DNA of 64,000 bases from Pseudomonadota bacterium (GTDB taxonomy: Bacteria; Pseudomonadota; Gammaproteobacteria; Burkholderiales; Burkholderiaceae_C): contig JAKARB010000014.1 of assembly GCA_021819435.1 (NCBI GenBank), forward strand, positions 19,085-83,084, in the 5' to 3' direction. Positions 439 through 20,044 of the stretch are shown piece after piece. Made by a program: the position numbers and the translations under genes. Below the pieces are notes generated by a model. It was not told the DNA's origin. It searched no databases and worked only from the letters and a program-made list of their open reading frames with translations. The stretch's first letter is position 1; each line of letters opens with the position of its first letter.

Positions 439-939
439 ATGAAATCCACACTGACCATCCTCGCCACCAGCCTCGCAGCGCTGTTGAGCGCACCCGCATT
501 CGCCGAGACCCCCCTCAGCGTTGACAACAGCTGGCACTACTTCTCCTTCGGCAACGTCGGCTCGACCTTCAGCAACCAGCCGTTCACGTTCACCTTGACC
601 GAGGCTGCCGTTCTGCGCGTGACCGACGCATACAACTCGGGCGACCAGTTCGAGGTCTTCAGCAATGGCAATTCGCTGGGCCTGACCTCCACCCCGACTT
701 ACGGCCATGACATCGGTGCTGACTACGCGGCCGCCTTCTTGAGCGAAAACTTCAGCCATGGTCAATGGACCCTGGCCGCAGGCACCTACAACATCACAGG
801 CGTCACCATCCTGTCGCCATACTCTGCGGGCGGCGCCGCCATCTCTCTGTCGGCCGTGCCAGAGCCCGAGTCCATCGCCCTGATGCTGGCGGGCGTGGTC
901 GTTCTGGGTGCAGGACTGCGCCGCCGCAACACACGCTGA
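439..939 (+). CDS. PEP-CTERM sorting domain protein
   Basis: Signal peptide; C-terminal VPEPESIALMLAGVVVLGAGLRRR (PEP motif, TM helix, Arg cluster). Confidence 0.9.
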   Translation: MKSTLTILATSLAALLSAPAFAETPLSVDNSWHYFSFGNVGSTFSNQPFTFTLTEAAVLRVTDAYNSGDQFEVFSNGNSLGLTSTPTYGHDIGADYAAAFLSENFSHGQWTLAAGTYNITGVTILSPYSAGGAAISLSAVPEPESIALMLAGVVVLGAGLRRRNTR

Positions 940-3376: not shown

Positions 3377-3475
3377 GCGCAACGCAACGCCGGCCGCGAA
3401 TCCTTTTGCCGCTTGCGCCCCTCTTTGCCATGGAAGCCCGCCACGGTGGCGGGCGCACGGAGGAGCACCGAAGCC

Positions 3476-4018
3476 ATGCGCATGTCCCCTGACCTGTCGA
3501 TCACCGACCTGCTGAGCCAGGCGCAAGCGGGCGATCAAACCGCACTGACGCGCCTGCTGAGCGAACTTCAACCCGACATCCGCCGCTACGCGCGCCGGCA
3601 ATGCCACCGGGCCTCCGTGCTGGAAGACGTGGTGCAGGAGGCGCTGATCGTCGTCTACCGCAAGGTGGGGCAGGTGCGCAGCGCGCAAGCACTGGGCGGC
3701 TGGCTGCTGACCGTCGTCACCCGCCTGTGCATGCTGCCGGCGCTGATGCTCAGCCGGGGCATCGAGGAGCTGAGCGACACCGACGAGGCGAAGCGGTTCG
3801 CGGCGGTGCCGGTGGACGACCTGCGCATCGACCTGGCGCGGGCCATGGAGTCCCTGCCCGCCACCCACCGCGAAGTCGTGCTGCTGCGTGATTTCGAGGA
3901 GTTGACGATCAACGAGATCGCCACGCGCCTGGGCATCACCCGCGAAGCCACAAAAAGCCGGCTGCACCGCGCGCGCTGCCTGCTGCGTGAGTACCTCGTC
4001 AACCAGGAGGCGGCATGA
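3476..4018 (+). CDS. ECF RNA polymerase sigma factor
   Basis: Region 2 (EDVVQEAL) and region 4 (REVVLLRDFEELTINEIATRLGITREATKSRLHRAR); GGAGGAG RBS before ATG 3476. Confidence 0.9.
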   Translation: MRMSPDLSITDLLSQAQAGDQTALTRLLSELQPDIRRYARRQCHRASVLEDVVQEALIVVYRKVGQVRSAQALGGWLLTVVTRLCMLPALMLSRGIEELSDTDEAKRFAAVPVDDLRIDLARAMESLPATHREVVLLRDFEELTINEIATRLGITREATKSRLHRARCLLREYLVNQEAA

Positions 4019-4371
4019 CGGCCTACCAGTCTCCCCAGGACCTGCGCCATGGCGCCGACCTCGTCAGGCTCGCGCCCACCGAGGCGAACGCCTTCCTGGC
4101 CTTCGACCACGCGGCCAAGCGCGAGGACGGCCACTTGCCGGCAAAGACGCGCGAACTCGTTTCACTGGCCGTTGCCTTGACCACCCAGTGCGCCTACTGC
4201 CTCGACGTGCACACGCGCGCCGCCAAGAAGGCGGGCGTGACGGCGGAGGAGCTCGCCGAGGTGATCGCGGTGGCGGCGGCGGTGCGCGCCGGCGCGACCA
4301 TGGCGCACGGCACCTTCGCGATGCGCTTGTTCAGTGAAGCGAACACCGGCAGCGGCGGCGCGCCGCCGTGA
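4015..4371 (+). CDS. Carboxymuconolactone decarboxylase / AhpD family protein
   Basis: KTRELVSLAVALTTQCAYCLDVH (CxxC-x2-H); ATGA overlap with the sigma gene. Confidence 0.9.
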   Translation: MTAYQSPQDLRHGADLVRLAPTEANAFLAFDHAAKREDGHLPAKTRELVSLAVALTTQCAYCLDVHTRAAKKAGVTAEELAEVIAVAAAVRAGATMAHGTFAMRLFSEANTGSGGAPP

Positions 4372-4414
4372 TCACACGGCAGGCCGCGTCACTTGCCGCG
4401 CCTCTTGTCCTGGT

Positions 4415-4912
4415 TCAGTTCAAACCCGACTGGCTCAGCCCGAACTCCTGGTCTTTCGAGCCCGGCACGTTGCGGAAGGCAACGTTGACGCGATTCCAGC
4501 CGTTGATGGCCATGACGCGAAAGGTCAGCTCGGAGAGTTCGACCTCGGAGAGCTGCTCGCGCGCCTCGGCGTAGAGCGCGTCCGGCACGCCATGGGCGTC
4601 CAGCCGGGTCAGGGCCTCGGTCCAGGCGAGCGCGGCGCGTTCACGCGGCGTGAACAGGGGCGACTCGCGCCAGATGGCGATGTGGTGCAAGCGCAAGGCA
4701 CGTTCGCCATGCACGTGCGCCTGCTTGACGTGCATGTCCAGGCAGAACGCGCAGCCGTTGAGTTGCGAAGCGCGGATGTCGATGAGGTGGGCCAGCGTCG
4801 GCTCCAGCTTGATGGACAGGGAAAAGTCGAGGAACTTCTTGAACAGCTGGGGCGACAGCTTCATGTAGTCGGCGCGGGGCTGGGGGGCGGATACGGGAGC
4901 GTCTTGGCTCAT
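4415..4912 (-). CDS. CMD/AhpD-family alkylhydroperoxidase-like protein
   Basis: IRASQLNGCAFCLDMH, RERAALAWTE, INGWNR motifs. Confidence 0.92.
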   Translation of the reverse strand: MSQDAPVSAPQPRADYMKLSPQLFKKFLDFSLSIKLEPTLAHLIDIRASQLNGCAFCLDMHVKQAHVHGERALRLHHIAIWRESPLFTPRERAALAWTEALTRLDAHGVPDALYAEAREQLSEVELSELTFRVMAINGWNRVNVAFRNVPGSKDQEFGLSQSGLN

Positions 4913-5083
4913 GGCGATTTTTCCTTTTGCGCTTTTGTGCGTTTGCACGTTTGCGCGGCTTAAGTGGTTGGCGGAGCCGGTGCGCTCACCGGCCCTCATC
5001 CACAAGACGACGCAGCACGTGGCTTTGTGACATCGGCGGACGAAAAGCCAAGGTGCCTGGTTCGCAGCCAGGTCCGTGACGCC

Positions 5084-6037
5084 TCACACAGCCAGCGCCG
5101 CCAGCAAGCCCTTGAGCTTCTCTGGATTGCGCTGGATGTAAAGCGCCCCGATGCGGCCCGGCTCGTCCACCGATGGCGCCAGCACCATGGCCTGCACGAG
5201 GCGTCCGCCCTCGAGGTCATCGAAGACCAGGCAGCCAGGCATGCCGTTGAGCCAGACGGCCTCCAGGCGCCAGCCCTGGCTGGCTGGCATGCGCGCGAAA
5301 CCGATGAAGGCGCGGGCGATGCGTTCGCCGCCTTGCAAGGGCCTGGGCACGGCGCTGACCACGCCGCCGCCATCGGCCAGCATCAGCGCATCGGCGCTGA
5401 GCAATTGCGCCAAGGCATCGACATCTTGCGAGCGCACGGCCTGGCTGAAGGCTTGCCACAGCCTGTGCCCATCGGCACGCGTGACCTCGCGGCGCGGCGC
5501 CTCTTCCTTCACTTTTCTGCGAGCGCGGCTGCTGAGTTGCCGGCAGGCGGCCGGACTGCGTCCCAGGTGCTCGCCGATTTCGCCGAAGTCGAGGTCGAAC
5601 ACGTCGTGGAGCAGGAAAGCGGCCCGCTCCAGCGGAGACAGGCGCTCAAGCGCAAGCATGAGGGCCACCGACACGTCCTGAGCGAACTCGGCCTGAGACT
5701 GCGGATCGGGGGCGGTCTTGCCAAAAGCCTCGTCGTCCAGCCAGGGCTCGGGCAGCCAGACGCCGACGTAATGCTCGCGGCGAGCGGCGGCCGAACCCAG
5801 CCGGTCCAGGCACAGGTGCGTGACCATGCGGGACAAGAACGCGCCCGCGTGCCGGACTTCGGCCTCGTCCTGCTCGGCCCAACGCAACCAGGCCTCCTGC
5901 ACGATGTCCTCGGCCTCGGCCACCGAGCCGAGCATGCGGTAGGCCAGTGCGCGCAAGGCGCGGGCGTGCTCGCGCTGGTAGCGCCGGGCGCGTTCGGCCT
6001 GGGCTTCGGCCGGGTTTGGCGGGGTGGACTCGGTCAT
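5084..6037 (-). CDS. sigJ: ECF41/SigJ-type sigma factor with C-terminal SnoaL-like extension
   Basis: YRMLGSVAEAEDIVQEAW, YVGVWLPEP, DGGG and RNPEKL motifs typical of ECF41. Confidence 0.9.
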   Translation of the reverse strand: MTESTPPNPAEAQAERARRYQREHARALRALAYRMLGSVAEAEDIVQEAWLRWAEQDEAEVRHAGAFLSRMVTHLCLDRLGSAAARREHYVGVWLPEPWLDDEAFGKTAPDPQSQAEFAQDVSVALMLALERLSPLERAAFLLHDVFDLDFGEIGEHLGRSPAACRQLSSRARRKVKEEAPRREVTRADGHRLWQAFSQAVRSQDVDALAQLLSADALMLADGGGVVSAVPRPLQGGERIARAFIGFARMPASQGWRLEAVWLNGMPGCLVFDDLEGGRLVQAMVLAPSVDEPGRIGALYIQRNPEKLKGLLAALAV

Positions 6038-6157
6038 GCGGGGATCAGTCTGGTCAGGGCGCTCGTTGCCTGTCGCGGCCAAGTCGGCGCGAGGTCACCG
6101 CCATGAACCTCGGCGTGATGGACAACGGGCGGCGAGCCGGACGGCAACAAGGCGGCC

Positions 6158-7120
6158 TCAGTTGGCGTGCGAACCGGGCAACCCACGCCAAGGCGGCGCC
6201 GGGATGCGCTCGGTTTCCCCCGGGACTGGTGCGAACCGGCCTGCGGCCCAGTCGGCCACCGCCTGCTCGATCAAGGCCGGATCGTGGGAAACGAAGTTCC
6301 ACCACATGCGCACCGGCTGGGCCAGGGGCTGTCCGCCGACCAGCACCAGGCGCGCCCCGTGCTGACCGGCCTGCAAGACCACCGCTTCGCCAGCAGGCAG
6401 CACGGCCATGTCGCGCGGCGCCAGCACTTCGCCATCCACGGTGAGGGCATCTTCGGGGCTGAAGATCGCTTGTTCTTCGGCCAGCGGCGGCAGGGTCCAG
6501 CTCGTGCCGGGCGGCAGGGTGATGTCCAGGTAAAGCGTGGGCGACGCGGTGCGCACGGGGCTGCGCACGCCGAAGGCCTCGCCCACCAGCACGCGCACTG
6601 ACACGCGCACCGGCGACTCGCTGCCCGATGGGCCCGACCCGCCCGCGTCCAACGTGACGTGCGGCAGGTCTGCCGCCGCAACGTGCTGAAACGAGGGCTC
6701 ACAGCGGGCCTGATCCGGCGGCAGCGCCACCCACAATTGCAGGCCATGCAGGCGGCGCGGGTGGCCGCGCTCGGCCTCGGGCACGCGCTCACTGTGCGCC
6801 ACACCCCGGCCCGCCACCATCCAGTTGATGGCACCGGGCGTGATGGTCTGCTGCGTGCCCAGGCTGTCGCGGTGCAGGAAGCCGCCTTCGAAGAGGTAGC
6901 TCACCGTCGCCAGCCCGATGTGGGGATGGCAGCCGACATCGGTGTCCAGCTCGGGCGGCAAGGTCACCGGCCCGAAGTGATCAAAAAAAATGAATGGTCC
7001 GACCGAGCGTTTCGCCGCTGCGGGCAGCACCCGGCGCACGGTCAGGGCGCCGGCCAGGGTGGTCTCGTGCCCCTTGAGGCGCAAAAAACGATCCCTTGCG
7101 GGCGAATCGGCGGCGCTCAC
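6158..7120 (-). CDS. Pirin family protein
   Basis: GPFIFFDHFGP, HPHIGLATVSYLFEG, HRDSLG, WMVAGRGVAHSE. Confidence 0.95.
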   Translation of the reverse strand: MSAADSPARDRFLRLKGHETTLAGALTVRRVLPAAAKRSVGPFIFFDHFGPVTLPPELDTDVGCHPHIGLATVSYLFEGGFLHRDSLGTQQTITPGAINWMVAGRGVAHSERVPEAERGHPRRLHGLQLWVALPPDQARCEPSFQHVAAADLPHVTLDAGGSGPSGSESPVRVSVRVLVGEAFGVRSPVRTASPTLYLDITLPPGTSWTLPPLAEEQAIFSPEDALTVDGEVLAPRDMAVLPAGEAVVLQAGQHGARLVLVGGQPLAQPVRMWWNFVSHDPALIEQAVADWAAGRFAPVPGETERIPAPPWRGLPGSHAN

Positions 7121-7536
7121 GCAACGCTCCCGGGCTCGGCCAGCGCCGTCTGCACATCGATCTCACCTTCGAAAATGCGGTGGATCGGGCACTTGTTGGC
7201 GATCTCCAGCAGCTTCGCGCGTTCGGCCTCGCTCACGTCGCCTTCGATGCCCACGGTGCGCACGAGCTGGTAGCGCACCCGGCCCTGTTCATCGCGCGAT
7301 TCGGTGTGCTCAACGCGCACTTTCAGGTCGGTGACGGGCAACTGGCGGCGGCGGATGTAGAGCTCCAGCGTCAGCGCCGTGCAGGCCGCGAGGGAAGAAT
7401 CGAGCAGGTCGTGCGGGTCCGGGGCGAGGTCGCCCGAACCCAGGGCCTTGTCGACATCGGAAAGCCAGGCGTGGCGACCGTTGCTGAGCGTGGTCAGGGC
7501 GCCATTGGCGCGGTGCAGGGTGGCTTCGACGGTCAT
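7117..7536 (-). CDS. OsmC family protein
   Basis: [17 protein letters not shown] and [11 protein letters not shown] (two conserved Cys). Confidence 0.92.
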
Positions 7537-7725
7537 GGGGTCTCCAAAGGTGCCTGCCCGGTTCGGTGGCAGGCAAAGGCTGCGGATGGCGATGGGCCCA
7601 TCATGGCCGACAAGCACCCACGCCGTGGTTCGCGGCTTTCGCACCCGGGCTTCAAAAACATCGAATGGTGGCCGGGCCCTGCCCATTTGCGTCCCTCGCC
7701 CCTCGCCCCTGGGTGGATTGGGTCA

Positions 7726-9868: not shown

Positions 9869-10621
9869 ATGCCCGCGAACTACGCACGCTACCTCGTCGG
9901 CCGCCACCGCAGCGTCCAGGCCAACCGCCAGCTCGGCTGGACCCTGGCCTTCGTCGCGGGCGCCATCAACGCGGGTGGCTTCCTGGCGGTGCACCAATAC
10001 ACCTCGCACATGACCGGCACGGTTTCGTCCTTGGCCGACAACCTGGCGCTGGGCCACCTCGATCTGGTCATCGACGGCATCGTCGGCGTGCTGTCTTTCC
10101 TGGCTGGAGCCATGTGCAGCGCGCTGATGGTGAACTTCGCGAGGCGACGCCAACTCAGCAGCGAGTTCGCGCTGCCGCTAATGCTGGAGGCCTTCCTCAT
10201 CCTGTGCTTCGGCCTGCTCGGCTCACGCCTGAGCGAGTTCGAAGGCCTGCTGGTGCCTTTCACCGTGGTGCTGCTGTGCTTCATCATGGGCTTGCAGAAC
10301 GCCGTGGTGACCAAGCTGTCTCACGCCGTCATCCGCACCACCCACATGACCGGCATCGTGACCGACCTGGGCATCGAGCTGGGCAAGGCCTTGTACTGGA
10401 ACCGTCGCGAGGACGAGCCCCCCGTGCGCGCCAACTTCGAACGCATGACCGTGCTCGGCGGCCTGCTGCTGGCTTTCACGGGCGGCGGCGTGATTGGCGC
10501 GTATGGGTTCAAGTTCGTGGGCTATGCGTCCACGGTGCCGCTGGCGGTGTTGCTGGCGGCGCTGGCGCTGGTGCCGGCGTGGGATGACTTTCGCAACCGG
10601 GGCGCCAGACTGTCAAGGTGA
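9869..10621 (+). CDS. YoaK / DUF1275 family membrane protein
   Basis: AFVAGAINAGGF, TSHMTG, MGLQNA, IRTTHMTGIVTDLG. Confidence 0.92.
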   Translation: MPANYARYLVGRHRSVQANRQLGWTLAFVAGAINAGGFLAVHQYTSHMTGTVSSLADNLALGHLDLVIDGIVGVLSFLAGAMCSALMVNFARRRQLSSEFALPLMLEAFLILCFGLLGSRLSEFEGLLVPFTVVLLCFIMGLQNAVVTKLSHAVIRTTHMTGIVTDLGIELGKALYWNRREDEPPVRANFERMTVLGGLLLAFTGGGVIGAYGFKFVGYASTVPLAVLLAALALVPAWDDFRNRGARLSR

Positions 10622-11647
10622 TTCGGTCTGCACAAGGCATTCGGCCATCGCCGGAGACGCCTGGCAACGTGCCTTCTTCATCAGGTTCAGCGTGCGCCAA
10701 CTGTAGAGGCCGGCCTTCGCCCCGTCGATGCGCCCCTCGCGCAGCACGTCCACATAAGGCTGTACCTGATCGGGCGGCAGCTCGTACCAGAAGCGGTCCG
10801 GCACCTCGGCCTCGGCTCGCTGGATGACCTTCAACGCCCACTCGTGCAGGCCAGCCCAGTACACGCGAGATGGCGCCCCGAGAGACGCCGGGACCTGCGC
10901 ACGGTTGAAGATGAGCTGCAGCGTCGGGATCATGACTGGCATGCGCAGCACGCCGCCCTTGCTGCCCATGCCCCGGGCCAACTCGAAGGGCCTGAAAGTG
11001 ACCGCTGGCATGTGGATGAGATCGACCAGGCCGTTGTTGAACTTGGCGCCCACATTGGTCACGTCCGACGAGATCGCCTGCGCGCCCATTTTCTGGACCA
11101 GCATGGCCTGGACACGGTCATGGTCGAAGACAGCCACCCGCTTGCCCGCAAGGCTGTGGGGTGTGATTTCGAAACGCTCGCGCATCATCGGGTAAGCCGC
11201 GCCAACCGGCATGATGCCCCCCACCTCGTAACGCCCTTCGATCATCAGTGAGGCGGCCTGTGGCGCCGCAAACACTTGGATGATCTTGCGCAGCACCTCG
11301 TAGCTGGCCGCAAGGTCGACCTTGCCATCACGCACCACCACGGCGGAGCCCAAGCTGTCGAGCGAGCCCGTGACCTGATTGAAGGACCGCGCCCGAAAGC
11401 CAGTGAGGATGGCTGCAGCGCACTGGCCGACGCGGAAGTCCTCGGCCACCACCCGCTCATCGGTGAAGGTGCGCACCTCAAAATGCACACCTTCGCGGGC
11501 CATCGCTGCGGCGTAGTCTTGGGCCAGTGCGTGCACATCGCCTCCCTTGCCGAGCAGGTCCCAGGCGCACAGCAGCGGGCCAGCCCACGCAGACCCGCTG
11601 AGCCCCATCAAGAAGGCCACGGCCCAACGATGGCTTGTCGAATTCAT
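10613..11647 (-). CDS. Putative solute-binding protein, AdeT/DUF6091-like (TRAP DctP-like fold)
   Basis: Signal peptide; CAWDLLGKGG, TDERVVAEDFRVGQC, KFNNGLVD, KKARC motifs. Confidence 0.75.
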   Translation of the reverse strand: MNSTSHRWAVAFLMGLSGSAWAGPLLCAWDLLGKGGDVHALAQDYAAAMAREGVHFEVRTFTDERVVAEDFRVGQCAAAILTGFRARSFNQVTGSLDSLGSAVVVRDGKVDLAASYEVLRKIIQVFAAPQAASLMIEGRYEVGGIMPVGAAYPMMRERFEITPHSLAGKRVAVFDHDRVQAMLVQKMGAQAISSDVTNVGAKFNNGLVDLIHMPAVTFRPFELARGMGSKGGVLRMPVMIPTLQLIFNRAQVPASLGAPSRVYWAGLHEWALKVIQRAEAEVPDRFWYELPPDQVQPYVDVLREGRIDGAKAGLYSWRTLNLMKKARCQASPAMAECLVQTESP

Positions 11648-11716
11648 GATCCCTCCTCGGTTGATGCGGATCAACGCTGTCGAGCGATGCGCCCCGAGAT
11701 GCGGGCGTCAAACAAC

Positions 11717-11744
11717 TTGACAGACAAGCGAACGAATTTACACT
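11717..11744 (+). promoter_or_regulatory. sigma70 promoter of the copper operon (nearly leaderless transcript)
   Basis: TTGACA (11717)-16 bp-TACACT (11739), 8 nt before ATG 11753, no Shine-Dalgarno sequence. Confidence 0.7.
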
Positions 11745-11752
11745 CCGCGACC

Positions 11753-12142
11753 ATGCCATTGTCCGTTCGTCGTCGCATCACCTGGATCGCCGCCCTGGCC
11801 GTCCTGATGATTGCGCTCGCGCCGGCCATCTCGCAATGGCTGCTGGCGCAACGCAACCCAGGCCTGAGCTGGGTGGCGGTGTGCTCGAGTACCGGCATGC
11901 GCTGGGTCGCTGTCGGCCAGGCCACACCCGATCACCCAGCTGATCAACAAGGCCTGCATGCCCAGTCGCATTGCCCGGCCTGTGTGCTGCATGCCCATGA
12001 CATGGGCCTGCCCCCCCAGCCCCTGCGCGTGCAGGCGCTGAACACCGAACGGGAGGCCCTGCCCTTCCTGTTCCTGCATGCGCCCCGCCCGCTTGCGGTG
12101 TGGTCGCCTGTGCTCGCCCGCGCCCCGCCGGCCGTGGTCTGA
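11753..12142 (+). CDS. DUF2946 protein, CruR-like copper-responsive leader ORF
   Basis: Signal/TM helix, VCSSTG, HCPACVLH (CxxC), C-terminal LARAPP (RAPP arrest motif). Confidence 0.85.
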   Translation: MPLSVRRRITWIAALAVLMIALAPAISQWLLAQRNPGLSWVAVCSSTGMRWVAVGQATPDHPADQQGLHAQSHCPACVLHAHDMGLPPQPLRVQALNTEREALPFLFLHAPRPLAVWSPVLARAPPAVV

Positions 12143-12254
12143 GAACACACCCTTCCCCTTTTTATTTTTATCTTGATCGATCACCGCTTGCGCGCGTGAG
12201 GCCTGGGTGCGTCCTGGCCCGCGTCAGCGTCTGCGCGTGACGGGAGCTTTCACC

Positions 12255-12893
12255 ATGAACAAGCAAACCACCTTCCGCACCGCCGCCCTCGCCTTGGTGC
12301 TAGGCACCTTTGCCAGCGTTGCATCGGCCCATGGCAGCCTCGATGGCGAATCGCTGTTGATTGAATACGGCGTTGACTTCGGCTCAGGCTTCACGGCCTT
12401 GAGCAGCCGCACGGTCACCGTGGGCAGCGGGCTCGAAGTCAGCGGCTGGCCGCTCAGCAGCGCCAAGGACATCCGCTGGAACATCGATTTCAGCGGCGCC
12501 AACATCGCCTTCACCTACGTGGGCAACGACGACTTCATGAACGTCGGCACCTTCGCGATGCAGGGCTTTCGCATCAGCGGCATGCCCTTCGAAGTCGAAG
12601 GCGCGCTCGTCACGAACACGGAGTACGTGCCCAACGTGAAGGGCAACCTGATCGAGGGATTCGACCCGACCACGGACCTGAGCTTCACGCCCAGGACGGT
12701 GTCGGTCAACCTCAACGAGTCGATGTACCACCACCACGCCATGACCGGCATGGGCGACCCGGTGCGCGATGCGATCAAGCTGCACCTGCACCTGGCGCCC
12801 GCCGTGCCTGAGCCATCGGGCTGGTTGCTGGGCGGCATCGGCTTGCTGGGCGTGGGCGTTCTGCGTCGGCGCAGCGTTGGATGCCGCGCTTGA
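12255..12893 (+). CDS. His/Met-rich PEP-CTERM protein
   Basis: Signal peptide ending ASA followed by His; internal SMYHHHAMTGM; C-terminal VPEPSGWLLGGIGLLGVGVLRRR. Confidence 0.85.
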   Translation: MNKQTTFRTAALALVLGTFASVASAHGSLDGESLLIEYGVDFGSGFTALSSRTVTVGSGLEVSGWPLSSAKDIRWNIDFSGANIAFTYVGNDDFMNVGTFAMQGFRISGMPFEVEGALVTNTEYVPNVKGNLIEGFDPTTDLSFTPRTVSVNLNESMYHHHAMTGMGDPVRDAIKLHLHLAPAVPEPSGWLLGGIGLLGVGVLRRRSVGCRA

Positions 12894-12938
12894 TGCCGAC
12901 GGCCCGATGAGGGCCTGACAGAAGCTTGCCAAGCTCCA

Positions 12939-12968
12939 CCGTCCCCGCCGCCGCTGTGGCGGGGACGG
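12939..12968 (+). other. Perfect 11-bp GC hairpin between the PEP-CTERM and receptor genes
   Basis: CCGTCCCCGCC-N8-GGCGGGGACGG, no U-tract. Confidence 0.6.
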
Positions 12969-13011
12969 CCTGCGGCATGCATGCGCCAACGCATTCATCA
13001 CCCACGCAACG

Positions 13012-15057
13012 ATGTTCAACTTCAGGAAGTTCAACCACCTCTGCCATGGGGCAACGGCGATGGTCCTGTCAGCCCTGCCCACCCTGTCGAGCGGCGAGAC
13101 ACTCACCGACGAAGCGACCTTGCCGGAGATCAGGGTGCAGGCCAGCAGCCCATCGGATCCCTTGCGCCCCAGCCTGCGCATCCACGGGCAGGACACGCAA
13201 GACGACCCCGCCGAGCAACTGCGCCAGGTCAACGGCGTGCGCGTGATGCGGCAGGCCGGCACCGCCGGGCTCGTGTCGGTGCAAGGCTTGAGCGGCTCGC
13301 GCGTGCCGGTGCTGCTCGATGGCTTGTCGATCGATGGTGCCTGCAACCATGGCATGGACCCGGCCACGTCTTACCTCACGCTCGACAGCATCGACCGCCT
13401 CACGGTGCTCAAAGGCCCGACCACCGTGCGCCACGCGGGGGTCTTCGCGGGTGCGGTGCTGGCCGAGCGCGTCCAACCCACCACCGATGCACCAGCCAGC
13501 ATGGCATTGCAAGCGCAAGTGGGCCGATTCGGCGAACGCATGCTGGCCGCTGAAGCCCTGCTCAACACCGAGCCGCTGTGGGCACGCGTCAACAGCCGCC
13601 GCAGCGAACGCGACGACTACCGCGACGGCCAGGGTCGCAGCGTGCCCTCGCGCTTCAACAAGCGACAGAGCATGGCCGACTTCGGCTGGCGCATCGGCCA
13701 GCACGACACCCTGACCGCCGAGGTGGCGCAAAGCGATGGCGAGGCCGTCTACCCCGCCTTCCACATGGATGGCACGGCCTTCCGCCAGAACCGCCTGGGC
13801 GCCGGCTGGCAGGCCCGCGAACGCCTGCCGTGGCTGGAGCTGATCGAGGTGCGCGCCATGGAGCAGCGCATCCGCCACGCCATGGACAACCACAGCCTGC
13901 GCGAGATGGAGCCGCTGAGCTACGACGGCGAAGCTCGCATCCGCGAGGACATGTTCCAGGACGTCAACCGGCGCCAAGTCAAGGCCGAGGCCGTGATGCG
14001 CCCGGCAGATGACCAGCGCCTGACGGTGGGCACCCAATGGGCGCGCGACGACCACGATGCCGTCAACCACCTCAGCAGCGAAGCCTGCGTGGATTTTGGC
14101 TTGCCCATGTGCTTCACGCAGGACCCGGGGCCGCAACCCTTCTACCAGGTTCGCCAGCGCAAGCGCGGCGTGTACGCCGAATGGAGCCTGGAACTCGACG
14201 CCTGGCAGCTGACCCTTGGCAGCCGGCGCGACCACGTTGGCACGCGCACGGGCGCCATCCGGTCTTTCGCCGTCAACCCGGTGGTGAAGTCAGGCGAGAA
14301 CGGGCGCACCGAGCATGAACTGAACCAGCAGGTGGCCCGCCTGGACTGGCGTTGGGATGCGGCCTGGCAGGCCCACCTGGCATGGGGCCAGGCCCAGCGC
14401 GCACCCGACCCCATCGAGGTGGGCAGCGTGGACGCCTTGCGCTTGAACCCGGAAACCAACCGCGAGTTGCATGCCGGGGTGAGCGGTGCTTCGGGAGCAT
14501 GGCAATGGGGGGTCGATGCCTTTCACAGCCGCATCGACGACTTCATTTTGCTGACCAGCGGCACGACCGCGCGCAACGTGCAGGCACGCCGCGTCGGCTG
14601 GGAGCTCGAAGGCCGATGGCGATGGGCCAGCGGTTGGTCGAGCGGCGCCGCATTCAGCCGCGTGCGCGCGGACAACCTGAGCGAACGCCGCCCGCTGGCC
14701 CAGACACCGCCCGACGAGTTGCGCCTGAACACCGACTGGCGCGAAGGCCCCTGGCAGGCGCGCATCGAATGGCGCGGCGCCGCCCGGCAAGACCGCTACG
14801 CGTTCAACCAGGGCAACACCAACGGCCTCGACCTCAACGAGGCCACGCCGGGCTTCAGCGTCGTCAACGCCTCGGTGCGACGGCAACTGCCCTGGCAAGC
14901 CAGCATCGCCATCGGCGTGGACAACGTCTTCGACCGCGCCTACGCCGAACACATCAACCACAGCGTCGACCGCAGTTGGGCCGCGCAGGGCTCCAGCAGC
15001 ACCAGGGTGCCCGAGCCCGGGCGGCGCTGGTGGTTGAAGTGGATTCAACGACTTTGA
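13012..15057 (+). CDS. oprC: TonB-dependent copper receptor, OprC-like
   Basis: Plug motif DGACNHGMDP (CxxxM) and RHAMDNHSLR resemble OprC Cu ligand motifs; GVDNVFDRAYAEH, EPGRRWW C-terminus. Confidence 0.82.
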   Translation: MFNFRKFNHLCHGATAMVLSALPTLSSGETLTDEATLPEIRVQASSPSDPLRPSLRIHGQDTQDDPAEQLRQVNGVRVMRQAGTAGLVSVQGLSGSRVPVLLDGLSIDGACNHGMDPATSYLTLDSIDRLTVLKGPTTVRHAGVFAGAVLAERVQPTTDAPASMALQAQVGRFGERMLAAEALLNTEPLWARVNSRRSERDDYRDGQGRSVPSRFNKRQSMADFGWRIGQHDTLTAEVAQSDGEAVYPAFHMDGTAFRQNRLGAGWQARERLPWLELIEVRAMEQRIRHAMDNHSLREMEPLSYDGEARIREDMFQDVNRRQVKAEAVMRPADDQRLTVGTQWARDDHDAVNHLSSEACVDFGLPMCFTQDPGPQPFYQVRQRKRGVYAEWSLELDAWQLTLGSRRDHVGTRTGAIRSFAVNPVVKSGENGRTEHELNQQVARLDWRWDAAWQAHLAWGQAQRAPDPIEVGSVDALRLNPETNRELHAGVSGASGAWQWGVDAFHSRIDDFILLTSGTTARNVQARRVGWELEGRWRWASGWSSGAAFSRVRADNLSERRPLAQTPPDELRLNTDWREGPWQARIEWRGAARQDRYAFNQGNTNGLDLNEATPGFSVVNASVRRQLPWQASIAIGVDNVFDRAYAEHINHSVDRSWAAQGSSSTRVPEPGRRWWLKWIQRL

Positions 15058-15111
15058 CTTTGATGGCAGGATGAGACCCTGCGTCCACCCGTGTTCAACC
15101 AGGAGACCAAC

Positions 15112-15618
15112 ATGAGTTCACACCGCTTTGCCCCCCTCGCATCCGCCATCGCCGCGCCGCTGCTCGCCGCCACGCTGGCCACCGCGGCGTTCAGCGCCCA
15201 CGCCCAAGTCGATGTCAGCAACGCATGGGTGCGCGCCACGGTGCCAGGTCAACAGGCCACCGGCATGTTCGCCACGCTCACCGCCAAGCAGGACAGCACG
15301 CTCGTGAGCGCCAGTTCGCCGGTGGCCAGCGCCGTCGAAGTGCACGAGATGAAGATGGAAGGCGACGTGATGAAGATGCGCGCCGTGCCCGCGCTGCCCC
15401 TGCCCGGTGGCCAGGCCGTGGCGCTCAAGCCCGGCTCCTACCACGTGATGCTGATGGGCCTGAAGAAGCCGCTGCCTGATGGCGGCACGGTGCCCGTCAA
15501 GCTGGTGGTGGAGGATGCACAGAAGAAGCAGACCACCATCGACCTCAAGGTGCCGGTGAAGAAGGCCGGGCCGGCCCAGGCGGCGGAAGAACATGGGCAT
15601 GAGCACCACCAGCATTGA
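15112..15618 (+). CDS. Copper chaperone PCu(A)C
   Basis: AWVRAT, VEVHEM...MKM...YHVML motif, His-rich tail EHGHEHHQH. Confidence 0.93.
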   Translation: MSSHRFAPLASAIAAPLLAATLATAAFSAHAQVDVSNAWVRATVPGQQATGMFATLTAKQDSTLVSASSPVASAVEVHEMKMEGDVMKMRAVPALPLPGGQAVALKPGSYHVMLMGLKKPLPDGGTVPVKLVVEDAQKKQTTIDLKVPVKKAGPAQAAEEHGHEHHQH

Positions 15619-15678
15619 AGCTGACGGGGTGCGCCCCGCCCGCTCACGCGCGTGCAAGCGTGCCCTCAGACGTGAGCC

Positions 15679-17886
15679 TCAGAAACGCACACTGGCCGTG
15701 AGATGGGCCTGCCGCCCCGGCATGGGGTAGTAGGTCTGGCTGTAGGCCAGCGTGCTGTAGCGCTCGTTGAGCAGGTTGCTCACACCGAGCGCCAGTTCCA
15801 GGTCATCCAGCCGATGCCTCACCACCGCGTCGACCACCTGGTAGGCGCGCAATCGCGCCAGCGGCGGGTTGTCTGCATCGGTGGCGTTGCCATCGCGGCG
15901 CGGCCCCACATGGCGCACAGAAAGAGCCGCCTGCCACGCGGTGCTCGGCTGCCAGTCCAGCGTGAGGCTGGCCGTTGTTCTCGCCACCAGCGGGATGTCG
16001 CCCGAGCGGCCGGCCAGGCTGGGCACCAGGTAGCTGAGCATGCCGTTCAGGCGCCAGCCACGCGCCGGCTGCCACCGACCCGCGAGCTCGATGCCCTGGC
16101 GGCGTGAGGCCTCGTCGCGGTTGCGATTGACCTCGTCGCCATTGGGTTCACGGCCGTAGTAGATCTCGTCCTGCAGGTGCAGGTCGAACCAGGTCATCGA
16201 CCATGAAAGCCGCTCGCCCGCTCGCTGTCGCCAGCCCAGTTCCTGCGTCACGCCGCGCTGCGGCCGCAGGTTCTGCGCGGCCTTGTTGAGTTCATCGAGG
16301 TTGGGCGCGCGGAAGGTGCCGTTGCGACGCGCGAAGAAGCTGGTGTCGGCGCCCGGCTGCCAGACGACGCCAAGCTCGCCCAACCGGTTGAACCAGTCGC
16401 CAGCCATGGGCGCCTGCGTGTCTTCGTAGGCATAGGGCGAACACACCAGCACCGGGAAGGGCGCAAAAGCGCAATCGCGCGACCACTGCTGGGTTCGACG
16501 TGTCGACTCGAAGTGATCCCAGCGGGCGCCGGCCTGAACAGTGATCGCCGAATGTGGGCTCAAGGTCGTCGCCAACGTCCAGGCGTTGGAAGCGGCCTCA
16601 CCTTGCAGACGCGTGTGGTCTGGAGCGCTGGAGGGACGGTCCCAGCGCGCGTACTCGCCGTCCATTCGGCTCCAGCCCAGCGACACCTCCTGCCTGCGGC
16701 CCGCCAGGTCGAAGCCCACACGGTGCTTCAGTTGGTGATCCCAGCGCTCGGAGGTGGTGAGTTGTTCCTGCTCGGACAGCGGTCGGCTGGCATCAACGCC
16801 GATGTAAAAGGGGTTGCGCCGCTCGCGGTGGCTGCTGGTCCAGGTGAGCTGGCCGAGCGTGCCGAAGTCGAGGCTTGCACCCAGGTCTTGTCGATCCAGC
16901 TCCGTGCGTCCGCCGTCCAACGGGGCCTGGGTCGAGCGCAATTCACGCTCGCTGCCCGACTCGAATACGTCGCGCGAGACCGGGCCAGGCAAGCCGTAGC
17001 GGTCACGCTGTCGGGTGGCGCGCGCATGGGCATCGGCTTTCACGTCGCCGAGGGAGGCCTGCCAGCGCAAGGTGAGTGCCGAACGCGTGCTGTCGAATTC
17101 GCTGTTGTTGCGCCAGCCGGGTTCTTGCCCACGGTGCAGTTGCAGCACGGGCGTCCAGGCGCCGATCCGGGTCGCGAGTTGGAGATCACCAATGCGTTCA
17201 CCCAGGGTGCCCACGCGCACCTGTGCTCGCCCGCGACGTTCGCCATCGTCGAGCTCGGGCAGGGTGTTGATGCGTACCACGCCGGCCACCGCGCCACTGC
17301 CGTGCTCAATGGCGCCGCCGCCACGCACGACTTCGATCTGGCGCACATCGCTCAGCGACAGCGATGACAAGTTGGCACCTGAAAGATCGTTCTCGTTGAG
17401 GACCACGCCGTCGACCACGATCAACACGTTGCTGCCGGCGGACTCGCCCATGCCACGCATGTCCAGTGTGGCGCTGCGGTCGTTGCCGAAGTAGCTTTGC
17501 AGCGGCAGGTTGGCTTCGGTGGCCAGCAGGTCGGCCACCGAGCTCGCGCTGGAGCGAGCGATGTCGCGCGCGGTCAGCACCGTGACGTTGCGCGCGGCGT
17601 CGGCCGATGGCGCAGCGGCTTCGGAGCCAGCTTGTGCACGCACGCGGACCTCGGGCAAGGTCGCCTCGGCGTCCACCACCTGCTGCCCAGGCCGTTGCTC
17701 AATCGGTGGCGCGGGCGACGTGCCCGCGCCCTGCGCCAAGGCAGCCCCCCAGATCCATGGCCACAGCACACCTGTCGCCATGGCAATGGCCGGCCTCGGC
17801 CAGATCGCCGGCAGCGCCCGCCGCCCCGCAGCACCCGCAGCACCCGCAGCACCCGCAGCACCCGGAGCGCGCGGGCCGCGCCTCAT
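15679..17886 (-). CDS. TonB-dependent receptor, probable cobalamin receptor (BtuB-like by context)
   Basis: Plug (DMRGMG..NVLIVVDGV), barrel, C-terminal Phe; last gene of the riboswitch-led operon, ATGA-coupled to the DUF4465 gene. Confidence 0.85.
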   Translation of the reverse strand: MRRGPRAPGAAGAAGAAGAAGRRALPAIWPRPAIAMATGVLWPWIWGAALAQGAGTSPAPPIEQRPGQQVVDAEATLPEVRVRAQAGSEAAAPSADAARNVTVLTARDIARSSASSVADLLATEANLPLQSYFGNDRSATLDMRGMGESAGSNVLIVVDGVVLNENDLSGANLSSLSLSDVRQIEVVRGGGAIEHGSGAVAGVVRINTLPELDDGERRGRAQVRVGTLGERIGDLQLATRIGAWTPVLQLHRGQEPGWRNNSEFDSTRSALTLRWQASLGDVKADAHARATRQRDRYGLPGPVSRDVFESGSERELRSTQAPLDGGRTELDRQDLGASLDFGTLGQLTWTSSHRERRNPFYIGVDASRPLSEQEQLTTSERWDHQLKHRVGFDLAGRRQEVSLGWSRMDGEYARWDRPSSAPDHTRLQGEAASNAWTLATTLSPHSAITVQAGARWDHFESTRRTQQWSRDCAFAPFPVLVCSPYAYEDTQAPMAGDWFNRLGELGVVWQPGADTSFFARRNGTFRAPNLDELNKAAQNLRPQRGVTQELGWRQRAGERLSWSMTWFDLHLQDEIYYGREPNGDEVNRNRDEASRRQGIELAGRWQPARGWRLNGMLSYLVPSLAGRSGDIPLVARTTASLTLDWQPSTAWQAALSVRHVGPRRDGNATDADNPPLARLRAYQVVDAVVRHRLDDLELALGVSNLLNERYSTLAYSQTYYPMPGRQAHLTASVRF
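17825..17864. repeat. 9-bp tandem repeat (CCCGCAGCA)x4 in the receptor signal region
   Basis: Seen directly; encodes GAAGAAGAAGAAG in frame. Confidence 0.9.
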
Positions 17887-18680
17887 CGCTGCGCCCGGCG
17901 ACGCAGGCCGATGACGCCCACCACCCCCACCAACATCATCGCCAGCGACGAGGCTTCGGGCACAGCACTCACGGCTGACACCGCCAGGTTGTCGATGGCG
18001 AAGTAGGCCGGCGTGTTCATGCCGAACGAGCCCACGTCAGAAGAGGTCAACTCGAACTTGAGCGAGGTGACCGTGCCGAGCGAGCTCAGGTTCACGCTGG
18101 TCCAGTTGCTGACCACGTGGTCCAGGCTGTTGTCGGCGAAACGGTAATCGGCCAGGTAGAAGTCGACGCGGCCGGTTTCCTGGCCGGTGGTGTTCAGGCC
18201 GATGAAGGTGAGCTTGAGGAAGTCGGCGTCGTTGCCGCTGTCGCCGCCGAACTTCTTGGCGAATGAGTCGCCTTGCAGCATCGACAAGGCCGCGTACGTG
18301 GTGTTGGTGACGTCCACGCTTTCGACCACGGAGGGCGCGTCCAGGCTGATCACGGGCGAGCCGATGTAGGCCAGCGCGTAGTTGGCCGAACCGCCCGCGC
18401 CCGAGCCGGCGTAGGCGCTGAACTGGTTCTCGAAGCCCGGCGTGGTGGTGTCGGTTTCGTTGGAGTAGGTCCAGCCGCTCCAGCAGCAGCCGCCGCCGTA
18501 ATCGGTGAAGTCGTGGTTGAAGCTGGCGGCGCCGCTGGTGAACTGGGCCGAGGTGCCGGGGAAGAAGTGGCTGTTCGCGCTCAGCGGCAGGTCGTCGAAG
18601 GTGCTGACGGTCACGGCGGCTTGCGCGCCCGAGGCCAGGCCGGCTGCCAGCAGGGCAGCGGCGATGCGGGAGGTGTTCAT
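17883..18680 (-). CDS. DUF4465 domain PEP-CTERM protein
   Basis: WSGWTYSN, NQFSAY, VTNTTY, FYLADYR, GMNTPAYFAIDNL (DUF4465) plus VPEASSLAMMLVGVVGVIGLRRR. Confidence 0.88.
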   Translation of the reverse strand: MNTSRIAAALLAAGLASGAQAAVTVSTFDDLPLSANSHFFPGTSAQFTSGAASFNHDFTDYGGGCCWSGWTYSNETDTTTPGFENQFSAYAGSGAGGSANYALAYIGSPVISLDAPSVVESVDVTNTTYAALSMLQGDSFAKKFGGDSGNDADFLKLTFIGLNTTGQETGRVDFYLADYRFADNSLDHVVSNWTSVNLSSLGTVTSLKFELTSSDVGSFGMNTPAYFAIDNLAVSAVSAVPEASSLAMMLVGVVGVIGLRRRAQR

Positions 18681-18716: not shown

Positions 18717-19532
18717 TCAGGCTGCGCGGCGACGACGGCGCTGCAGCGCGCCCATGGCCAGCAGGCCCGCACCCATCAGCGCCCAGGTCTCGGGTTCGGG
18801 CACCGGCGCAAAGTGGATGACGCCGACGGCATCGAGATCGAAGCCGCCGCTGCCGGTGGTGGGGTACGGGTCATAGATCGGGTGCGGGCCGCCGTACTGC
18901 GCGGGGTAGTTGTCGAACTCCTGGCCACGGCCGACCACGTCGACGATGCGCACGTAGCGCACGTTGTCCACGTCCAGGCCCGCCTTGCCGGCCAGCGAAT
19001 CCAGGTCGAAGGGCGTGCCGAAACCCTGGCGGTACTTGCCGGCCAGGCCATCGATGTTGGTCGGGTCGATGCTGCCGAAGCCGCCCACCGGCGCGGGGGT
19101 GAACGAGTAGCTGGGGAAGCGGAAGAAGTCGACGCCGTTGGATGAGACCTCGACGAAGCCCAGCTCCAGGAAAGTGTCGTTGAAGCTGTTTTCAAAGACC
19201 GCGAAGTCAGCACCCGCGCCGTTGTAGATGGCGCCATCGAAGGTCAGGGTGATGCGGCCAGCGTCGCCCAACACGACGATGTCGGTGGAGGTGCCTTGGG
19301 CCTTGCCCAGGGCCTTCTCGGGCGTTTTCCATTGCGCGTCGACGTTGGGACCCGGCTGGTAGTCCTGCCAGCCGGTGGCCCATTGCACGATGGCCGGGCT
19401 GTCCTTGCTGATGGCCGTGGAGCCGGGCTTGCCGGCGGCCGGGGCGAAAGGACCGGCCGCGTGGGCGGTGCCCAGGCAGGCCAGGGCCAGGGTGGCCGCG
19501 CAGGCCGGGACTGAGAGAAGCTTGAATCGCAT
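18717..19532 (-). CDS. PEP-CTERM cell-surface protein with BtuH-like domain
   Basis: [47 protein letters not shown] plus [26 protein letters not shown]. Confidence 0.8.
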
Positions 19533-19634
19533 GTTGTTCCTCCGGGCACCCACCATCCGTGGGCGCATTCGAGCCAACCGGCTGAACACAGCAGAGGAAC
19601 AAGACAGCACGCGCACACCCGGTCGGGCCGCATG

Positions 19635-19667: not shown

Positions 19668-19694
19668 GCCCACCGCAGCAACCGGGTCCATGCT

Positions 19695-19910
19695 CCAGGC
19701 CGGTCTCCGGGCTCGCGAACGCCTTGTGGGCCAGCGATCCGCCTTCCCATGCTTCGCAGCACAGTGGCACCGTGGATCGCCTTGCTTCGCTTCACCGTTG
19801 CGGGGGCAGCGTCGGGATCAGCGAGCCTTGTTTGTCAAGCAAAAAGGCCCGCACACCGAACTTCCCGTTTCACCCTTGCAGACCGCTCGCGCGGCCCCAA
19901 GGACACCTGA
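19695..19910 (-). ncRNA. Cobalamin (B12) riboswitch
   Basis: Minus strand reads AGGTG...GGGTGAAACGGGAAGTTCGGTG...GCTGCCCCCGCAACGGTGAA...GCCACTG...TGGGAAGG...GAGCCCGGAGACCGGCC (B12 box); TACAAT -10 at 19921-19926. Confidence 0.95.
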
Positions 19911-20044
19911 GGCGGGGCGGATTGTAAAGCTGGCCCTGGGGTTTGCCCAGCCCCGCGTTCCGGGCCCCTGAACGGGCTCGGAACGTAGACTGGTGCTGGC
20001 GCGCTTGCGCCGCCCCCCCAATCAACACCCGCGCAGCGGCCCTC

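Follow-up and report, generated by a model that had tools for sequence, protein, structure and literature searches.

How copper is delivered to the outer-membrane importers of Gram-negative bacteria is unresolved: OprC has been described as importing ionic copper, and azurin is the sole protein donor proposed for it. A locus in a Pseudomonadota bacterium of the Burkholderiales (GenBank assembly GCA_021819435.1, contig JAKARB010000014.1, positions 19,085 to 83,084) raises the question of whether such a receptor could have a surface partner of its own, and how the two would be placed under copper control. Within this stretch of 64,000 nucleotides (nt), referred to below as the window, open reading frame (ORF) listing and scans with Pfam and NCBIfam revealed four co-directional genes on the plus strand, a small cruR-like ORF, a gene for an exported PEP-CTERM protein, here termed Y, a gene for an OprC-type TonB-dependent receptor and a gene for a PCu(A)C copper chaperone (Table 1). 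An original prediction, made from the nucleotide sequence alone, had proposed a CruR-type copper-attenuated operon at this site, and all of its elements were recovered in place. With slightly better than even confidence, we read the four genes as a copper-acquisition operon with a single predicted promoter and a CruR-type switch by which copper would turn it off, Y serving as an extracellular copper donor.

The regulatory half of this reading starts from the first ORF, which matches the DUF2946 family (Pfam PF11162) with 74.9 bits against a cutoff of 23.7 (E=1e-20) over 116 of 117 profile positions. Members of the CruR family are recognized by a CxxC motif and a C-proximal RAPP motif about 45 residues apart, a distance conserved within 1-2 residues (PMC9426467). 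In the window ORF the CPAC motif occupies residues 74-77 and RAPP residues 123-126, with 45 residues in between, and the N-terminus consists of RRR followed by a hydrophobic stretch, that is, an export signal. The DUF2946 assignment and both motifs of the original prediction were thereby confirmed, except that RAPP is C-proximal rather than strictly terminal, being followed by a three-residue tail (AVV) before the stop codon. Moreover, the ORF heads a putative copper-gene operon with a long intergenic region (112 nt) behind it, and its companions belong to classes that are common downstream of CruR, namely OprC-type receptors and PCu(A)C (Roy et al., 2022; PMC9426467). The interpretation as a CruR-type attenuator is therefore supported by every sequence-level hallmark that could be examined (DUF2946, CxxC, RAPP, their spacing, the export signal, operon position and spacer). 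The regulatory switch thus belongs to a known family, and DUF2946 proteins of Aquabacterium and Methyloversatilis are already listed in Table S1 of Roy et al. (2022; PMC9426467), while in the literature searched no report of an OprC-coupled PEP-CTERM protein was found: PEP-CTERM does not appear in the text of Roy et al. (2022; PMC9426467) or in the supplements consulted, and no paper mentioning both PEP-CTERM and DUF2946 was found in that literature.

A single promoter is predicted to serve the locus. The sigma-70-type sequence TTGACA-16-TACACT directly before the cruR-like ORF is the sole promoter-like match in the 4.4 kb between 11400 and 15800, where 0.2 matches would be expected by chance. 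A promoter had been predicted here, and its two hexamers are conserved in six relatives, since in an ungapped alignment both hexamers (CTTGACAG at -35 and TA[CA]ACT at -10) are invariant, as is the distance of 8 nt from the -10 box to the cruR ATG. Conserved hexamers combined with a variable inter-hexamer spacer are, on the strength of this alignment, the phylogenetic footprint of a real promoter. With just 8 nt between the end of the -10 box and the ATG, and with no recognizable Shine-Dalgarno sequence in between (11744-11755), the cruR mRNA is probably leaderless or nearly so. Neither an intrinsic terminator nor a second promoter-like site was found in 11400-15800. At the gathering threshold the only Rfam match in the whole window is a cobalamin riboswitch of a neighboring operon, and a permissive Rfam scan of 11650-13100 returned zero matches, so that the leader carries no known RNA element.

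The 112-nt spacer between cruR and Y is composed of a G-poor tract, an imperfect G+C-rich hairpin and the Shine-Dalgarno sequence GGGAG. The tract, which had been described as pyrimidine-rich and poor in G, indeed contains only 3 G in 43 nt and 72% pyrimidines, and only 0.07% of the 43-nt windows in the 64 kb are equally poor in G. When the criterion used to locate the Rho-utilization site in bp2923 of Bordetella pertussis was applied, C exceeded G in all windows of 78 nt between approximately 11925 and 12195 (C 36-47%, G 19-33%), which results in a C>G bubble (approximately 11925-12200) that extends over the 3' half of cruR into the beginning of the spacer; the spacers of most relatives are likewise C-rich relative to G. 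A single nucleotide (12241) separates the end of the hairpin from the Shine-Dalgarno sequence. The stability of the hairpin does not exceed that of shuffled sequence (z=-0.98), and it displays compensatory changes in 3 of 15 pairs among six closely related sequences, values that are weak evidence for a conserved structured element, and it was not accepted as one. The hairpin may act as a pause element. The first two G of GGGAG pair with it in the minimum-energy fold, while the centroid fold leaves the Shine-Dalgarno sequence free.

Control by CruR-type attenuation is favored because the CruR hallmarks and the C>G bubble coincide with a single promoter and with the lack of an intrinsic terminator and of an Rfam riboswitch at the locus. 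By analogy to Bordetella, a ribosome translating cruR under copper scarcity would stall on RAPP and cover the C-rich 3' end of the ORF, which would block Rho loading and allow RNA polymerase to read into Y, the receptor and PCu(A)C. In the presence of copper, the nascent CPAC motif would bind the metal, the stall would be relieved and the ribosome released at the stop codon, whereupon Rho could load on the exposed C>G, G-poor RNA and terminate transcription within the 112-nt spacer. Ribosome stalling and Rho had been correctly named as components of the Bordetella switch in the original prediction, but the direction needed refinement: the stall occurs without copper, copper relieves it, and Rho then terminates. 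Once produced, Y would be exported by the Sec pathway and processed via its PEP-CTERM signal to reach the cell surface or matrix, where its Met/His loop (M157, Y158, H159, H160, M163 and M166) would capture copper for the outward-facing site of the OprC-type receptor, and PCu(A)C would take up the imported copper in the periplasm and pass it on to cuproenzymes.

The receptor consists of a plug (PF07715) and a barrel domain (PF00593), and its top matches in the PDB are all Pseudomonas aeruginosa OprC (E=2e-59, residues 63-676), whose copper ligands C143, M147, H323 and M325 align to C111, M115, H289 and M291. The OprC-like receptor with a CxxxM motif that had been predicted was thus recovered together with the HxM half of the site. 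The copper-receptor model TIGR01778 (TonB-copper) is the best NCBIfam match, with 284 bits below an equivalog cutoff of 472; given the four CxxxM-HxM ligands and the PDB match on the one hand and this score on the other, the protein is classified from its sequence as OprC-type and not as an OprC equivalog. The predicted PCu(A)C protein was also verified, with 128 bits to PF04314 against a cutoff of 29.4. The Cu(I) motif of its class, H(M)X10MX21HXM, is intact in the form HX10MX21HXM (HEMKMEGDVMKM, 21 residues, HVM, from the translation), and the protein ends with a His-rich C-terminal tail. Its gene is the last of the operon, and a convergent receptor gene lies beyond. Between Y and the receptor, a spacer of 118 nt contains a perfect 13-bp hairpin with z=-3.29 and, in the window, no T-run. 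Nearly all relatives have a strong hairpin here as well, whose sequence differs from one to the next; it may function as a partial terminator, or it may stabilize the mRNA upstream and thereby raise the yield of Y over that of the receptor.

Gene Y, which had been predicted to encode a PEP-CTERM protein between leader ORF and receptor, was confirmed at that place. Its product possesses a signal peptide (residues 1-25, AxA site, mature start H26) and a tail with VPEP, a hydrophobic helix and an RRR basic cluster (AVPEPSGWLLGGIGLLGVGVLRRR, from the translation), that is, all features by which PEP-CTERM proteins are recognized; in the family alignment P185 and E186 of the tail are invariant and V184 nearly so. 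The core in between is a beta-sandwich in the structural model and beta-rich in the family alignment. An AlphaFold model of the full-length protein reached a predicted local distance difference test (pLDDT) score of 75.6, and one of the core a pLDDT of 85.4 and a predicted template modeling score of 0.83. A search of 5.8 billion protein clusters yielded relatives in 37 clusters at 90% identity, which are 46-100% identical to Y, and a profile of the mature core had 27 matches among 1.84 billion representatives. Throughout the family alignment the motif S-M-Y-H-H-[HV]-x-M-x-G-M-G-D-P-x-R-D is invariant, and the most distant members retain S-M-aromatic-H-x3-M-x2-M together with a related sorting tail. 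Clusters of Met and His are typical of Cu(I) sites, such as those of CusF, CopC and Ctr1. The sequence profile of Y had zero matches among PDB sequences, and comparison with the curated NCBIfam PEP-CTERM families gave no match outside the tail. Because every relative examined encodes it immediately before an OprC-type receptor (see below), Y is probably a partner protein capturing copper for that importer. With a tiny family, an invariant Met/His motif and both export and sorting signals, it represents a concrete candidate copper donor for OprC-type receptors, which could be tested in the cultured Aquabacterium parvum B6 and Methyloversatilis universalis.

The synteny survey suggested in the original prediction was carried out, and the combination of a CruR-like ORF, one or more PEP-CTERM genes and an OprC-type receptor was found to be conserved across Aquabacterium, Comamonadaceae and Methyloversatilis. 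Y lies directly upstream of a homologous receptor in 20 of 20 loci, comprising two metagenomic loci and 18 species genomes (Aquabacterium, one Comamonadaceae isolate, Methyloversatilis, an unclassified betaproteobacterium and Nitrosospira). The same adjacency was observed in five further loci (L021-L025) and in three more distant lineages, down to approximately 35% identity, and almost all partner receptors checked carry CxxxM and HxM. A CruR-like ORF (CxxC, 43-45 residues, RAPP and a tail of 1-4 residues) precedes the PEP-CTERM genes and the receptor in 17 of the 18 species loci; in the eighteenth (L019), just 253 nt are present upstream of the first PEP-CTERM gene. Since Y-OprC modules also occur without CruR, the link to CruR is not obligatory. 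In one distant Y lineage a divergently transcribed histidine kinase and response regulator are found instead of CruR, and in another Y and the receptor stand alone, without a second PEP-CTERM gene. Judged by gene order, the module has the Y-OprC pair as its core, and several regulators are used with it, CruR being that of the Aquabacterium and Methyloversatilis groups.

The survey also revealed that the arrangement in the window is derived. While Y indeed follows cruR as the first gene here, as the original prediction stated, elsewhere a second PEP-CTERM gene, X, stands between cruR and Y; it is present in all 20 loci and additionally in L024 and L025, and is absent from the window and from a 93%-identical relative from an aquifer. 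The cultured strains A. parvum B6 and M. universalis FAM5 carry X as well as Y. The spacer of the window aligns to the cruR-X spacer of the relatives, including the Shine-Dalgarno sequence of X, and is fused to Y at the start codon, the short sequence CAC(C)ATG at this junction being shared. The lineage of the window thus lost X by a precise start-codon-to-start-codon deletion. An assembly artefact was rejected as an explanation, as contigs from three independent studies span the junction. Because the entire spacer was kept through this precise deletion, it appears to be under selection and to function together with cruR, which suggests that the cruR spacer is a self-contained regulatory unit; the deletion of X with retention of the spacer amounts to a natural experiment on it. 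X encodes a protein of 255-290 amino acids (aa) with the invariant mature N-terminus HVSY. In the loci inspected, the predicted mature start is conserved as HVSY[TS]xRDF, which could be a histidine-brace-like copper site. A paralogous relationship of X and Y was rejected, as the PEP-CTERM tail alone is common to both, and X likewise shows no relationship to the PEP-CTERM protein encoded first in the neighboring B12 operon described below. No copy of X was found elsewhere in the window, where only a weak match to the tail occurs (772-936).

A neighboring operon on the opposite strand lends weight to a role of Y at the cell surface. It comprises a cobalamin riboswitch, a PEP-CTERM protein gene, a gene for a DUF4465 protein with a PEP-CTERM tail and a TonB receptor gene, and its predicted organization is that of the copper operon, with a ligand sensor in cis, PEP-CTERM protein(s) and a receptor. 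DUF4465 domains bind vitamin B12, and the characterized members are surface-exposed (PMC13398666); a PEP-CTERM-tagged DUF4465 protein is not mentioned in that paper. This parallel plan supports, by analogy, the view of Y as a surface ligand-capture protein. In total, four PEP-CTERM proteins are encoded in the 64-kb window, which implies an exosortase system in the genome; the fourth is a 166-aa ORF (439-939, plus strand) with no other recognizable domain and no adjoining receptor. Somewhat below even odds, and thus tentatively, we propose that Y is the founder of a class of "cuprophores". Sorted by exosortase and held at the surface or in the matrix, these proteins would capture copper with their Met/His loop and load it onto the external site of OprC-type receptors. 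More generally, in some Betaproteobacteria PEP-CTERM proteins that capture ligands would be the functional counterpart of SusD, BtuG and BtuJ, the surface lipoproteins by which TonB receptors of Bacteroidetes are fed.

With the same regulation, Y might instead act inside the envelope, where the PEP-CTERM helix would serve as an inner-membrane anchor and the protein would relay copper through the periplasm from the receptor to PCu(A)C or to an inner-membrane importer. Met/His-rich loops are typical of periplasmic Cu(I) proteins, the modeled tail does hold a transmembrane-like helix, exosortase is unmatched in the 46 of 49 window ORFs scanned, and PCu(A)C is encoded in the same operon. We nevertheless regard such a relay as unlikely, since the sorting signal is conserved family-wide, distant members included, the adjoining B12 operon tags DUF4465 alike although its characterized relatives are surface-exposed, ZepA with the same tag was found in the exoproteome, and the operon already provides a periplasmic chaperone. 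It is far harder to regard Y as a generic matrix or floc protein that is a mere passenger unrelated to copper. Most PEP-CTERM proteins do lack a known function and no known copper fold was detected in Y, but at each locus examined, whatever the genus and down to approximately 35% identity, its neighbor is an OprC-type receptor, its Met/His motif is invariant, and the members of its extremely small family are found nowhere else, which makes such a passenger role highly improbable.

The regulation, too, could differ from the attenuation that we favor. In Rhodobacter capsulatus, CutF, which is also a DUF2946 protein, acts in the opposite sense (bioRxiv 10.1101/2025.02.05.636593), and a similar mode in the window would mean that copper induces the stall, opens the spacer hairpin and frees the ribosome-binding site of Y, which would then be a protective extracellular copper sponge. 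The position of the hairpin right before the Shine-Dalgarno sequence, its pairing with the first two G in the minimum-energy fold and the mine-drainage origin of a sample carrying the locus would suit such a copper-on switch. On the other hand, the cargo is an importer with OprC ligands and PCu(A)C, classes found behind CruR and not multicopper oxidases, the RAPP position and the 45-residue spacing are identical to those of Bp2923, and a G-poor tract in which C exceeds G suits Rho loading. As in addition the hairpin is of ordinary stability and the centroid fold leaves the Shine-Dalgarno sequence unpaired, we hold this mode to be improbable. Marginally more doubtful still is the absence of any leader control, in which case cruR would encode just a neighboring small exported copper-binding protein, and transcription of Y and of the receptor would start at separate promoters or be uncoupled by the hairpin between them. 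The long spacers (112 and 118 nt), the strong hairpin after Y and the Y-receptor modules that occur elsewhere without CruR agree with this. It is difficult to reconcile with the failure to find a second promoter-like site in 11400-15800, the retention of the spacer as a unit after the deletion of X, the first position of CruR in 17 of 18 species loci and the situation in Bordetella, where CruR protein is barely made and the ORF acts in cis.

Several observations weigh against the copper-acquisition operon with Y as donor. Distant Y-OprC pairs (L027/L028 and L029/L030) have no CruR, the TIGR01778 score of the receptor stays below the equivalog cutoff, and the strong hairpin after Y could partly uncouple Y and receptor transcription. 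Y passes the PEP-CTERM model PF07589 only marginally (21.0 bits versus a cutoff of 20.7), its Met/His motif is situated on a low-confidence loop of the AlphaFold models, and Foldseek searches of the PDB with both models gave best E values of 0.15-0.16, template modeling scores no better than 0.3 and no known copper-protein fold. No exosortase match was obtained in the 46 ORFs scanned among the 49 coding-like ORFs of the window (3 short ones were left out). Likewise, a search of RNA runs and contigs from four RNA runs (metatranscriptomes of the same study) yielded nothing specific to the locus. Copper scarcity is not obvious in a mine-drainage sample, and the azurin-OprC interaction, which is used here as a precedent, is disputed.

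Table 1. Positions of the features discussed (nucleotides of the window, except for gene X).
Feature	Position	Strand	Basis
Sigma-70-type promoter, TTGACA-16-TACACT	11717-11744	+	Promoter scan, conservation in six relatives
cruR-type upstream ORF, DUF2946, 129 aa	11753-12142	+	Pfam PF11162, motifs
C>G bubble, candidate Rho-utilization region	11925-12200	+	Base composition, 78-nt windows
CPAC codons of cruR-like ORF	11972-11983	+	Translation
RAPP codons of cruR-like ORF	12119-12130	+	Translation
G-poor, pyrimidine-rich tract directly after cruR stop	12143-12185	+	Base count
Imperfect G+C-rich hairpin in cruR-Y spacer, weakly supported	12181-12240	+	Centroid fold
Shine-Dalgarno GGGAG, 8 nt before Y start codon	12242-12246	+	Alignment with cruR-X spacers of relatives
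Gene Y, exported PEP-CTERM protein, 212 aa	12255-12893	+	PF07589, alignments, model
Y Met/His motif, S156-D172	12720-12770	+	Family alignment
Y PEP-CTERM tail from residue 183	12801-12890	+	PF07589, translation
Perfect 13-bp G+C hairpin in Y-receptor spacer	12939-12968	+	Fold, recurrence in relatives
OprC-type TonB-dependent copper receptor, 681 aa	13012-15057	+	PF07715, PF00593, TIGR01778, PDB match
PCu(A)C periplasmic copper chaperone, 168 aa (alternative GTG start 15091)	15112-15618	+	PF04314
TonB receptor of B12 operon	15679-17886	-	Pfam
DUF4465 protein with PEP-CTERM tail	17883-18680	-	Pfam
PEP-CTERM protein, first gene of B12 operon	18717-19535	-	Pfam
Cobalamin riboswitch	19681-19925	-	Rfam, 96.9 bits
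Gene X, examples in relatives (absent from window)	L003 5206-5973; L010 4995-5855; L001 1544-2404		

The surroundings of the module vary among the relatives. The closest genomes, at approximately 80% nucleotide identity, are those of Aquabacterium and Comamonadaceae; a mine-drainage metagenome run carries the stretch at full identity, and an aquatic metagenome run contains approximately 85% of the sampled words. In Methyloversatilis and relatives (L010, L011, L012-L018 and L020) two CruR-like ORFs were found per locus, which differ in the distance between CxxC and RAPP (44 vs 43). The two ORFs lie within approximately 0.5 kb of each other in L010, L011 and L020 and about 3 kb apart in L012-L018, where the upstream one heads a separate gene for a protein of approximately 700 aa and the other heads X, Y and the receptor. 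Close relatives have an extra TonB receptor gene immediately upstream of cruR (L003 2452-4626; L024 1465-3609), which in L024 comes after a NikR-like regulator; the window contains a gene for an AdeT-like solute-binding protein (10613-11674, minus strand) in its place. Farther upstream, two genes for sigma factors of the extracytoplasmic function (ECF) type (3413-4018, plus strand; 5084-6082, minus strand) are each located beside a gene of the carboxymuconolactone-decarboxylase family (CMD/AhpD-like) and are followed by pirin and OsmC genes (6158-7686), a group (3413-7686) that looks like an oxidative-stress cluster.

Among the systems described so far, the cruR-bfrG/crtA-bp2921 operon of B. 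pertussis, headed by CruR (Bp2923; Roy et al., 2022; PMC9426467), is the one that the leader of the window resembles in most respects. Both ORFs encode DUF2946 proteins in first position with an N-terminal export signal, a CxxC motif, 45 intervening residues and RAPP 3 residues before the stop, the intergenic region behind them is long in either case and a C>G bubble covers the 3' end of the ORF and the spacer, and in both operons a TonB-dependent copper receptor is encoded downstream. However, the first regulated gene encodes a PEP-CTERM protein in the window but the receptor in Bordetella, the receptor is OprC-type rather than CrtA-type, and PCu(A)C takes the place of a PepSY_TM protein. Moreover, the cruR spacer measures 112 nt compared to 162 nt in Bordetella, and the cruR mRNA is predicted to be leaderless, in contrast to the mapped 45-nt 5' untranslated region of the Bordetella operon; the window operon is known from its sequence alone. 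The locus accordingly widens the cargo known under CruR-type leader peptides. CutF of the R. capsulatus cutFOG operon shares with the window ORF the DUF2946 family, copper sensing by the nascent peptide and a stall at a C-terminal proline motif. There, copper-induced stalling melts a hairpin at the ribosome-binding site and switches on a multicopper oxidase (bioRxiv 10.1101/2025.02.05.636593). In contrast to the uptake genes of the window, the cargo of CutF is detoxifying, and its action requires the signal peptide and elongation factor P.

On the side of the receptor, the best match in the PDB is OprC of P. aeruginosa with its CxxxM-HxM copper site (PDB 6FOK; Bhamidimarri et al., 2021; PMC8610252), all four ligands of which are kept in the window protein. 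In front of oprC, too, there is a homolog of cruR (Roy et al., 2022; PMC9426467). Yet the two receptor sequences are only modestly similar, and no PEP-CTERM gene adjoins oprC; the protein donor proposed for OprC is azurin secreted by the type VI secretion system, an interaction that is under dispute (PMC8610252).

Of the proteins known, ZepA (All3515) of Anabaena, an exoprotein with a PEP-CTERM tail that scavenges zinc (PMC10957091), comes nearest to Y in function, and the study describing it was the only one in the literature searched that mentions both PEP-CTERM and OprC. Like Y, ZepA is small, carries a Sec signal and a PEP-CTERM tail, and is encoded near TonB receptors and other PEP-CTERM genes; control by metal limitation and hand-over of the metal to an outer-membrane receptor are features that the two share as proposed. 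In contrast to Y, with its Met/His cluster and strict adjacency to the receptor, ZepA handles zinc with histidine ligands under the regulator Zur and is loosely linked to its receptor, so that the resemblance, drawn by analogy, is functional only. A similar plan was found in Bacteroides, where the surface B12-binding DUF4465 proteins BtuJ1 and BtuJ2 are encoded in riboswitch-controlled btuB loci (PMC13398666), which likewise combine a ligand-sensing cis element, surface capture protein(s) and a TonB receptor. The BtuJ loci differ from the copper operon in the ligand, in a lipoprotein anchor instead of PEP-CTERM, and in a riboswitch instead of a leader peptide. Taken together, the copper operon, the B12 operon beside it and ZepA suggest that PEP-CTERM capture proteins and TonB receptors are generally paired; if this is true, the window would hold a copper version under a nascent-peptide sensor and, next door, a B12 version under a riboswitch.

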